Sequence record: OM386654.1
Source: Escherichia phage vB_EcoM_ESCO9
Length of the DNA stretch: 64,000 bases
Reading direction: 5' to 3' (one strand)
Part shown: one piece after another, positions 62,852 to 63,567 of the stretch
Numbering within the stretch: position 1 is the first letter of the stretch
Layout of the letters: each line of letters starts with the position of its first letter
Translations under genes and position numbers: made by a program
Notes under the pieces: generated by a model
The model's database searches: none
Told to the model about the DNA's origin: nothing
The model's input: the letters and a program-made list of their open reading frames with translations, nothing else

Positions 62852-62927
62852 TGGTCGTGGTAAACGGAGTCGAACCGTTGTTTCTCGATTATCGGTCGAG
62901 TGTACTAACCATCTGTACGATACCACA
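62852..62927 (-). tRNA. tRNA, probable Ile (anticodon GAU in standard register), encoded CCA
   Basis: Hand-folded cloverleaf: acceptor 7 bp (one G-U), T-arm AACGG-TTCGACT-CCGTT, anticodon arm CTCGA-CCGATAA-TCGAG, D-arm GTAC stems; C at position 33 is unusual. Confidence 0.5.
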
Positions 62928-62932
62928 ATAAT

Positions 62933-63029
62933 TGGCAGCAAGGTGAGGAATCGAACCCCCTGATCTATGGTTTGGAGCCATATTGAGTACCATACTCTTT
63001 TAAATCTACCCGGCTATGAGTTCCTTGAA
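62933..63029 (-). tRNA. Aberrant tRNA-like element (T-arm, CCA end and anticodon-type hairpin with CCA/Trp triplet, but no canonical D-arm/acceptor pairing)
   Basis: T-loop TTCGATT with encoded CCA; hairpin TATGG-CTCCAAA-CCATA; 5' acceptor partner only 5/7 and displaced by about 20 nt. Confidence 0.3.
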
Positions 63030-63063
63030 GTGTCAATGTAATTTAATCATTACACCAGAAGGG

Positions 63064-63142
63064 AGGTATTTATTGGAGGCGGGAGTAGGATTTGAACCTA
63101 CGATCTCCAGCATATGAAACTGGCGAGGACGACCAGACTCCT
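63064..63142 (-). tRNA. tRNA-Met (anticodon CAU), encoded CCA, mismatch at acceptor pair 1:72
   Basis: T-arm CCTAC/GTAGG with loop TTCAAAT; anticodon loop TTCATAT; D-stem GAGG/CCTC; acceptor 6/7 bp. Confidence 0.6.
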
Positions 63143-63167
63143 CTATCCCGCACAATCTGTAATAATT

Positions 63168-63252
63168 TGGTAGCTAAGGTGAGACTCGAACTCACAATCC
63201 CTTGGGGCAATACGTTCTAAGCGTATCGTGTATACCATTCCACCACTTAGCC
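63168..63252 (-). tRNA. tRNA-Leu (anticodon UAG), type II with long variable arm, encoded CCA
   Basis: T-arm GTGAG/CTCAC loop TTCGAGT; anticodon arm ATACG-CTTAGAA-CGTAT; 14-nt variable region; acceptor with G-U. Confidence 0.6.
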
Positions 63253-63329
63253 ATAATAAGTACACCACTGTAAGAAGCCTCAATGTGCTATTGACAGTTA
63301 ACCAAGTCTACTCCTTGGATGGTGTTATT

Positions 63330-63404
63330 TGGTGCAGAGAGATGGTAACGATCCATCCTTTCTACCTTTTCAGGGTAGCACTAATCCGTCTCAGCTATCT
63401 CTGC
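63330..63404 (-). tRNA. tRNA-Phe (anticodon GAA), noncanonical T-loop, encoded CCA
   Basis: Perfect 7-bp acceptor (GCAGAGA/TCTCTGC), anticodon arm CTACC-CTGAAAA-GGTAG, T-arm GATGG-ATCGTTA-CCATC (A54/T58 instead of T54/A58), D-stem with two G-U. Confidence 0.5.
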
Positions 63405-63409
63405 AAATT

Positions 63410-63485
63410 TGGTCAGTGCGGCAGGACTCGAACCTGCGACCCGAAGCATCCAAAGCTCCCACGCTACCAACTGCGCTACGCACTG
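63410..63485 (-). tRNA. tRNA-Pro (anticodon UGG), encoded CCA
   Basis: Perfect acceptor CGCACTG/CAGTGCG, T-arm GCAGG loop TTCGAGT, anticodon loop TTTGGAT. Confidence 0.65.
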
Positions 63486-63492
63486 TAAATAT

Positions 63493-63567
63493 TGGCTGGA
63501 GATCTAGGAATCGAACCTAGTCATCACGACTTCAAAGGCCGTTGCCTTCCCACTAGGCTAATCTCCA
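63493..63567 (-). tRNA. tRNA-Gln (anticodon UUG), encoded CCA
   Basis: Perfect acceptor ATCTCCA/TGGAGAT, T-arm CTAGG loop TTCGATT, anticodon loop CTTTGAA. Confidence 0.65.

Follow-up and report, generated by a model that had tools for sequence, protein, structure and literature searches.

The 64,000-nucleotide stretch of Escherichia phage vB_EcoM_ESCO9 analysed here (OM386654.1; hereafter the window; G+C content 37.8%) carries near its end an array of minus-strand transfer RNA (tRNA) genes, which an initial annotation by hand folding had resolved into about seven members, with tRNAs for Ile(GAU), Met(CAU), Leu(UAG), Phe(GAA), Pro(UGG) and Gln(UUG), one aberrant element, and an encoded CCA in every one. 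This description holds at the positions originally proposed, with six of the genes recovered by ARAGORN and Rfam and the seventh by covariation. ARAGORN reports exactly six tRNAs in the window, all on the minus strand and of the same isotypes, and the Rfam tRNA model RF00005 matches the same six at 48.9–62.2 bits (gathering score 29; E = 2e-7 to 4.5e-11 over the whole window), with no further tRNA found in the 64 kb by either method. All six are cloverleaf tRNAs by both an RF00005 score above the gathering score and an ARAGORN anticodon, and CCA lies directly 3' of the discriminator in each of them as well as in the seventh element. The aberrant element itself is real, and on the sequence comparisons presented here represents a tRNA of novel structure, in which an acceptor stem of 8 bp is combined with a T stem of 4 bp (8/4), five helices and tryptophan (Trp) identity, and which is absent from all annotations checked.

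The array as such was already known, its six canonical genes being annotated in phage phi92 and in GenBank. The 1.4-kb locus shows 98.8% identity over 1401 nt to Escherichia phage phi92 (NC_023693.1; Justusliebigvirus, Stephanstirmvirinae), with ~50 close relatives also matching, and the gene order Gln-Pro-Phe-Leu-Met-Ile is identical in the window and in the phi92 and phage arall annotations, where the six-tRNA block is flanked upstream by a small rIII-like open reading frame (ORF) and downstream by gp114, spanin and terminase. Near-identical sequence, order and flanks place the locus in the phi92-type array, of whose 15–16 genes the six tRNAs are the last, with the end of the window falling inside the array and nine or ten more tRNA genes of phi92 (Gly, Thr, Asn, Tyr, Lys, Ser, Ser, Leu, Met) lying upstream beyond it. 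The same 16 tRNAs are listed for BME3, a phage of the same genus, from tRNAscan-SE and ARAGORN, in a genome-wide list that lacks Trp (PMC12210895).

The Trp-like RNA is likewise missing from the annotation of its other carriers, with BLAST finding it in 62 phage records, in none of which it is annotated as a tRNA. Its carriers comprise all Justusliebigvirus, the Klebsiella phages KP13-26 and FKP3, Citrobacter phage Tr1, the Hafnia phages SarahDanielle and Zyzzx, and ‘Listeria’ phage LPML1, the last three being Ounavirinae. In the Stephanstirmvirinae it always lies between the Met and Ile genes, and in the Ounavirinae between Ser and Thr. Nine distinct versions, each of exactly 83 nt, fall into three clades, namely Justusliebigvirus, other Stephanstirmvirinae (KP13-26, Tr1 and contig L120), and the Hafnia-phage clade of Ounavirinae, with ~75–80% identity between clades. 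A covariance model (R1) built from four copies and run on ~130 loci scores the homologs at 96–105 bits and every canonical tRNA at no more than 41.5 bits, and the sole Rfam family to give any match is the selenocysteine tRNA (tRNA-Sec, RF01852), which matches best but weakly (22.4 bits against a gathering score of 47). Among wider searches, a loose pattern, TTTAA-N(12-26)-TGGCTCCAAAC, was set aside after returning 120 loci on viral contigs, mostly chance matches. In metagenome and genome collections, a fixed-spacing 17-base pattern matched roughly as often as chance predicts, with a whole-architecture filter leaving one phi92-like contig (L172) and no bacterial homolog. Searches of the literature, whose limits leave an earlier description possible, turned up no relevant prior account of this RNA.

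The deduced architecture begins at the 5' end with the 8-bp acceptor stem and A9. Helix P follows and encloses a UUUAA linker, a D-like hairpin (loop YGG) and the anticodon arm; next come two nucleotides, the T arm (4 bp, loop UUCGAYU), G73 and CCA (Table 1). Pairing holds in 96.4% of cells across the five helices, and both partners have changed in 12 pairs compared with 0–3 when partners are slid by 1–3 columns, with no shuffle reaching the observed scores and compensatory change present in each helix. The D-like hairpin is fully replaced between clades, from GAGUA-UGG-UACUC to UCAC-UGG-GUGA in Tr1. Helix P is formed by connector nucleotides 10–12 and nucleotides 52–54 of the variable region, which pair in 9/9 sequences, with pair 11:53 appearing as A-U, G-C, C-G and U-A across the versions and pair 10:54 changing from G-C to A-U in KP13-26. 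Pair 8:72, found unprompted by RNAalifold, occurs as U-A in four sequences, A-U in three, and C-G and U-G in one each; therefore the acceptor stem has 8 bp and the T stem 4 bp. Column 8 is fully pairable with column 72 only, and the one other partner of column 11, column 76, requires G-U wobbles. Together these pairings would replace the canonical four-way junction by two three-way junctions. Two alternative folds were rejected: a canonical-style D stem (10–13 with 28–31) fails in Tr1 and SarahDanielle while the local hairpin is kept by its full compensatory replacement, and a 7/5 reading with pair 56:72 is mismatched in 6/9 sequences while 8:72 covaries.

Table 1. Features of the array region, with positions counted from the first nucleotide of the window.
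Feature	Position	Strand	Basis and remarks
tRNA-Gln (UUG)	63493..63567	-	ARAGORN; Rfam 61.4 bits; annotated in phi92; 67% identity to E. coli glnU
tRNA-Pro (UGG)	63410..63485	-	ARAGORN; Rfam 62.2 bits; 70% identity to E. coli proM
tRNA-Phe (GAA)	63330..63404	-	ARAGORN; Rfam 49.2 bits; flagged pseudo in phi92
Element 2, unannotated structured RNA, 62 nt	63263..63324	-	RNAalifold; covariance model R2; 5 nt after CCA of tRNA-Phe, 10 nt before tRNA-Leu
tRNA-Leu (UAG), class II	63168..63252	-	ARAGORN; Rfam 58.0 bits
tRNA-Met (CAU), initiator-like	63074..63152	-	ARAGORN; Rfam 48.9 bits, 1:72 pair marked non-canonical
Met/Trp-like spacer, 58 nt, Justusliebigvirus-specific	63016..63073	-	Absent in KP13-26 and Tr1 (Trp-like RNA 3-6 nt after Met)
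Non-canonical tRNA-Trp-like RNA, 83 nt including CCA	62933..63015	-	Covariation; covariance model R1; 5 nt before tRNA-Ile
Trp-like RNA, acceptor stem	63008-63015 with 62937-62944	-	8 bp, C4xU mismatch
Trp-like RNA, helix P	63004-63006 with 62962-62964	-	3 bp
Trp-like RNA, D-like hairpin	62985-62997	-	Loop UGG
Trp-like RNA, anticodon arm	62966-62982	-	Anticodon CCA at 62973-62975
Trp-like RNA, T arm	62945-62959	-	4-bp stem, loop UUCGAUU
Trp-like RNA, 3' end	discriminator G 62936; CCA 62933-62935	-	Sequence
tRNA-Ile (GAU)	62852..62927	-	ARAGORN; Rfam 57.3 bits
Terminator-like hairpin	62436..62460	-	Consensus scan; after first downstream ORF (gp114 homolog, 62471-62740)

Several observations weigh against this structure, or against its being a working tRNA. 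The canonical-tRNA description, a 7/5 cloverleaf, does not apply to the RNA, which has no RF00005 match at E≤10 and no ARAGORN call in any of nine genomes. Nearest-neighbour energies disfavour helix P, with the five-helix fold 0.5–2.9 kcal/mol less stable than the fold without P and minimum free energy folds omitting it, and it is covariation alone that argues for this helix. Furthermore, the nine sequences derive from three clades, such that some of the covariation counts are not independent, and the copies of Stephanstirmvirinae carry the C4xU acceptor mismatch. The folding energy of the RNA is no better than that of shuffled sequence (z = +0.19). The mismatch, the energy and the rejection by ARAGORN and the Rfam tRNA model could suggest a decaying tRNA-Trp pseudogene with an insertion in the D arm and no activity, and other members of the array were flagged as pseudogenes by the phi92 annotators. 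However, a constant length of 83 nt in three such divergent clades, compensatory double changes in all five helices, and an invariant anticodon loop, set of identity nucleotides, T loop and CCA form a pattern not expected of drift, and render decay very improbable. The comparative pattern instead points to clear selection for structure.

The anticodon loop of the RNA, CUCCAAA, is that of E. coli trpT. The identity set of bacterial tryptophanyl-tRNA synthetase (TrpRS) consists of G73, the anticodon C34-C35-A36 and a first pair A1-U72 (PMC9976931), all of which are present and invariant in the nine sequences, as are the whole anticodon loop, the CCA end, the GG of the D-like loop and the motif GGUUCGA. 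The complete array of KP13-26, bounded on both sides by coding sequences, has 24 annotated tRNAs for 19 amino acids together with a CUA suppressor, with Trp alone missing and the Trp-like RNA lying inside. Because this array covers all amino acids but Trp, the RNA can be read as the phages' tRNA-Trp in a rewired architecture. The array of contig L120, with 23 tRNAs, has the same gap, however the stored locus is cut inside the array, and the statement ‘all except Trp’ covers the arrays of KP13-26 and L120 and not the rest of the KP13-26 genome, both of which temper the argument.

A tRNA of this shape would retain features needed for decoding. The 8-bp acceptor and 4-bp T stems would keep the 12-bp branch read by EF-Tu, and the YGG loop of the D-like hairpin could provide the G18/G19 contacts of the elbow. 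In the anticodon branch, nine layers would stack (helix P, a single nucleotide and an anticodon stem of 5 bp) compared with ten for the canonical D stem, N26 and anticodon stem, and the overall dimensions of the L-shape could therefore be kept. With A1-U72, G73 and C34-C35-A36 retained, along with the A36-A37-A38 context, charging with Trp and reading of UGG would be expected.

Demand for UGG, on the other hand, offers no support for an extra tRNA-Trp. When 61 long ORFs of the window are set against 42 annotated genes of E. coli K-12, phage usage of UGG does not exceed that of the host (13.4 vs 13.2 per 1000), leaving codon demand as no reason for such a gene. This lack of demand, and a core architecture unlike that of every tRNA known to work on ribosomes, would also suit an RNA that is made and folded but takes no part in decoding, a mimic of tRNA-Trp acting as a regulator or as a decoy for some host factor that binds by recognising the anticodon or acceptor of tRNA-Trp, be it a nuclease, a modifying enzyme or TrpRS itself. 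Precedent for inactive relatives exists in the irregular 8/4 tRNAs, one with an ‘E-loop’, that Mukai et al. (PMC5389517) found to escape aminoacylation or to play no part in translation. A decoy would not need, however, the maintenance of a 12-bp acceptor/T branch, a canonical T loop with its GG partner, a nine-layer anticodon branch and CCA all at once, and it would not account for an RNA that fills the sole amino-acid gap of two arrays; a mimic is thus judged unlikely.

A more specific proposal is that the rewired D region makes the RNA a Hirsh-type UGA suppressor serving programmed read-through. A G24A mutation in the D arm lets E. coli tRNA-Trp read UGA, and the analogy, an altered D region with an unchanged CCA anticodon, is all that commends the idea here. 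TGA ends 9/74 window ORFs, the in-frame extension beyond it having a median of 11 codons, close to the 9 for TAA, and the one long extension corresponds to an ordinary gene further downstream that has a Shine-Dalgarno sequence and ATG of its own, so that suppression of this kind can be considered extremely improbable.

Taken together, the region is probably the promoter-distal end of a polycistronic phi92-type tRNA array, with the seventh gene encoding the phage tRNA-Trp in a rewired architecture, charged and reading UGG. Taken on its own, the proposition that the Trp-like RNA is charged with Trp and used in decoding has, from its conserved nucleotides and helices, somewhat better than even chances. 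The fullest version of the proposal falls slightly short of an even chance, namely a working, Trp-charged decoding tRNA in which the 3' strand of the D stem is replaced by the variable region, with an 8/4 branch, two three-way junctions, a topology not previously shown in translation, and horizontal passage between two phage subfamilies. The unusual core might additionally allow evasion of a host factor specific for the body of a canonical tRNA-Trp.

The six canonical tRNAs share 55–71% identity with their E. coli K-12 isoacceptors, and are therefore no recent captures. With respect to core nucleotides (U33, a T loop with T54–A58, and a paired 1:72), Gln, Pro and Leu are standard, whereas Ile deviates by C33, Phe by its T loop, AUCGUUA, and Met by a U1xC72 mismatch, with the Phe and Met deviations kept in relatives beside compensatory stem changes. 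The T loop of tRNA-Phe has A54/U58 instead of T54/A58, and an unusual loop (AUCGUUA or CUCGAUA) is kept across Stephanstirmvirinae, Tr1 and KP13-26 among them, where the acceptor, anticodon and T stems show compensatory change. Because the odd loop is conserved alongside such changes, tRNA-Phe is probably functional, and the ‘pseudo’ flag it bears in phi92 wrong. In tRNA-Ile(GAU), C33 replaces the near-universal U33 (loop CCGAUAA); the orthologs of KP13-26 and Tr1 have U33, and the change is therefore specific to Justusliebigvirus.

The Met-CAU gene looks initiator-like. It shows the initiator-type features of a 1:72 mismatch, A11:U24 and the T loop UUCAAAU, and its closest host tRNA is the initiator metZ (71% identity) vs 56% (45/80) for the elongator metT. 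The E. coli initiator also has three consecutive G-C pairs (29-31:39-41) and A73; the phage tRNA has U73 and an anticodon stem CCAGU/GCUGG in which G30-C40 alone of the three pairs is kept. The gene is annotated as tRNA-fMet in the PaulScherrer and EmilieFrey records, and both the 1:72 mismatch and U73 recur in Tr1 and SarahDanielle. A lysidine-bearing tRNA-Ile2 with the same CAU anticodon was considered and rejected. E. coli TilS uses the acceptor pairs C4-G69 and C5-G68, and in the phage acceptor stem, UGCGGGA, positions 4 and 5 are G-C and not C-G.

As to the role of the array, the initial annotation had proposed compensation for codon usage or replacement of host tRNAs depleted by defence nucleases. 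In the same ORF comparison, taken as shares within each synonymous family, CUA is enriched 3.2-fold in the phage over the host (as a share of Leu), CCU 3.9-fold, CCA 2.3-fold and CAA 2.1-fold, with slight enrichment of AUU (1.35-fold) and UUU (1.23-fold) and no phage excess of AUG. The first proposal is borne out for part of the set: codon compensation accounts well for Leu-UAG, Pro-UGG and Gln-UUG, weakly for Ile and Phe, and not at all for Met. The phage tRNAs would enlarge the pool available for the overused A/U-ending codons (CUA, CCA/CCU and CAA), and a supplement to the tRNA pool for A/U-rich codons is the likely role of the array.

The second proposal would make the main role of the array anti-defence, with phage tRNAs replacing host tRNAs cut by anticodon nucleases and the odd features, C33 of tRNA-Ile, the T loop of tRNA-Phe and the rewired core of the Trp-like RNA, representing escape mutations. 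Such systems exist, with the tRNA-Tyr of T5 countering retron-Eco7 and a phage tRNA-Lys countering PrrC (PMC11555353), and changes in the anticodon loops of phage tRNAs have been discussed (PMC10264068). The low identity to host isoacceptors would fit, and C33 is a lineage-specific change adjoining the usual cleavage sites. However, literature searches turned up no enterobacterial nuclease targeting Ile, Phe, Leu-UAG or Trp tRNAs, nor is one known for the other isotypes of the window, one published report argues against a blanket anti-nuclease effect of phage tRNAs, and Leu, Pro and Gln are already accounted for by codon bias. Additionally, the Trp-like anticodon loop equals that of the host and would hence give no escape from an anticodon-loop nuclease. 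Overall, defence evasion appears an improbable main role when set beside supplementation of the tRNA pool.

A second structured RNA, element 2, occupies the 77-nt gap between tRNA-Phe and tRNA-Leu. It forms a three-way junction in which a closing stem of 5 bp is joined by a hairpin (5 bp, 7-nt loop) and by a bipartite arm of near-invariant sequence, CUGK-CAAY-AGC...GCU-UCUU-MCAG. Pairing is complete (100% of cells), and both partners have changed in 8 pairs compared with 0–2 in slid controls, with the closing stem and first hairpin covarying. Its covariance model, R2, matches at 74–93 bits in the window, phi92, the Klebsiella phages DP and KNP2 (Mydovirus-type), Serratia phage Kashira and Salmonella phage 19, and finds it absent from KP13-26, Tr1, L120 and Ounavirinae. 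The element starts 4–5 nt after the CCA of the preceding tRNA (in DP and Salmonella phage 19, after an ACCA-ending sequence that is not called as a tRNA) and ends 0–10 nt before the next, except in Kashira, where ~90 nt follow. It has neither CCA nor T loop and matches no Rfam family at E≤10, and on its conservation and placement is best described as a conserved non-tRNA RNA in a ‘tRNA slot’. A promoter, suggested by eye from a TTGAGG...TAYWWT-like spacing, was rejected, as a consensus scan finds none and covariation in the closing stem and hairpin favours an RNA structure. In Klebsiella phage DP (L006 2390-2490), tRNA-Phe and element 2 are separated by ~100 nt that include a T-arm-like GCAGGTTCAAGTCCTGT, have ...GAACCA as their end and receive no ARAGORN call; this sequence may be another irregular tRNA or a remnant of one.

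Spacers of 5–25 nt had been described throughout the array, which holds for four (7, 5, 15 and 5 nt) but not for the Phe-Leu gap or for the 58 nt that separate Met from the Trp-like RNA. A hairpin in this last spacer is no better than shuffled sequence (z = -0.1, computed on the whole 146-nt gap), and in phage SD2 an insertion encoding an HNH endonuclease takes the place of the region. The 109-nt spacer between tRNA-Ile and the start of gp114 (62743-62851, minus strand) similarly shows no folding energy beyond that of shuffled sequence and no covariance-model match; it contains a T-arm-like GGAGGGGUGCGACUCC and may be a decayed tRNA remnant. A consensus scan of the minus strand from 62400 to 64000 reveals no sigma-70-like promoter, and the hairpin that it finds downstream of gp114 is likely the 3' end of the transcription unit. 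The absence of an internal promoter, together with this terminator-like hairpin, fits co-transcription and processing from a long precursor. The array would be transcribed from upstream as one precursor, cut by host RNase P and 3' exonucleases, and its tRNAs charged by host synthetases.

Further observations concern the relatives. HNH homing-endonuclease genes lie at differing sites of the arrays of SD2 (PQ821640), VEcB (NC_052663), DP (L006 712-1158) and SarahDanielle (L005 3158-3637). In the arrays of KP13-26 (L362 9757-9831) and L120 (9301-9375), a tRNA with the CUA anticodon, an amber suppressor, has been auto-labelled ‘tRNA-Pyl’. In phi92, outside the window, a further unannotated tRNA lies on the minus strand between Ser-UGA and Leu-UAA (L001 5845-5923), with an Rfam tRNA score of 38.6 bits, above the gathering score, and no ARAGORN call. 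The minus strand of the L120 array contains matches to YrlA (Y RNA-like) at 6775-6890 and 6666-6721, with 42.1 and 26.2 bits respectively, below the gathering score of 69. The ‘Campylobacter phage’ records A150, A145, C3 and A110a (MG065639/45/56/89) show 94.5% identity to the present coliphage over the 1.4-kb region and 99–100% over the two gap elements, and ‘Listeria phage’ LPML1 (OK283618), one of the Ounavirinae, is almost collinear with the Hafnia phages; judged from these sequences, the host labels of all five records look doubtful.

If the Trp-like RNA works as a tRNA-Trp, then RNase P, TrpRS, EF-Tu and the ribosome accept a wider range of tRNA architectures, phages of the KP13-26 type would encode tRNAs for 20 amino acids and not 19, and annotation based on tRNAscan, ARAGORN and Rfam would under-count the tRNA repertoires of phages. 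The rewired topology would, moreover, be carried by well-studied phages of E. coli and Klebsiella. Being short and carried by phages that can be grown on E. coli K-12, the RNA is tractable, and it is also a possible scaffold for orthogonal tRNA engineering. Element 2 would add one more conserved non-tRNA passenger to those of phage tRNA operons.

In relation to known systems, the window does not differ from the clusters of phi92 and other Justusliebigvirus with respect to the six canonical tRNAs, and the Trp-like RNA and element 2 are also present in those clusters, annotated in none of ~60 records. Element 2 can be set beside species 1 and 2 (rnaC/rnaD), small stable RNAs that the tRNA cluster of phage T4 reportedly encodes. 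By description these share with it a structured non-tRNA RNA in a ‘tRNA slot’, presumably released by the same processing, however element 2 is much shorter (~62 nt) and has no CCA. The Trp-like RNA resembles E. coli trpT in its 7-nt anticodon loop, A1-U72, G2-C71, G73 and CCA, but only 48/84 aligned positions are identical, with trpT forming a 7/5 cloverleaf with a D stem of 10-13:22-25 and an 8-nt D loop, and the phage RNA being 7 nt longer and of another junction topology. With bacterial tRNA-Sec it has in common the 8-bp acceptor stem and a D arm of long stem and short loop, whilst differing in its anticodon (CCA not UCA), the lack of a long variable arm, and a T stem of 4 bp not 5.

A close parallel is provided by the 8/4 tRNAs of Mukai et al. 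(2017, PMC5389517), which undergo processing and charging and serve translation in E. coli; phage arrays contain them too, with tRNA-Ser and tRNA-His among the examples, and the set includes an ‘8/4 tRNA1 with an E-loop’. They share with the Trp-like RNA the 12-bp branch (acceptor 8 bp, T stem 4 bp), a compact D hairpin of long stem and tiny loop, a place in a polycistronic phage array, and a tendency to be missed or mis-scored by standard finders, with tRNA-Sec as the best Rfam match. The stem lengths of the class are thus present in the Trp-like RNA, but its long variable arm and its tRNA-Sec-like D arm directly after the acceptor are not; instead, a variable region of 5 nt pairs with nucleotides 10–12, and the D hairpin is displaced by the conserved UUUAA linker to 10 nt from the acceptor, in an RNA with Trp and not Ser or His identity. 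A more typical member accompanies it in the same arrays, where tRNA-Ser(UGA) (L001 5689-5778, L120 6382-6471 and L362 12382-12471), flagged pseudo in phi92 and with tRNA-Sec as its best Rfam match, folds with 8 bp in the acceptor stem and 4 bp in the T stem; its D arm has a stem of 5 bp capped by a tetraloop, and its variable arm is long. On this modelled fold, it is an (8/4) allo-tRNA-type tRNA-Ser of the kind that Mukai et al. reported from phages.

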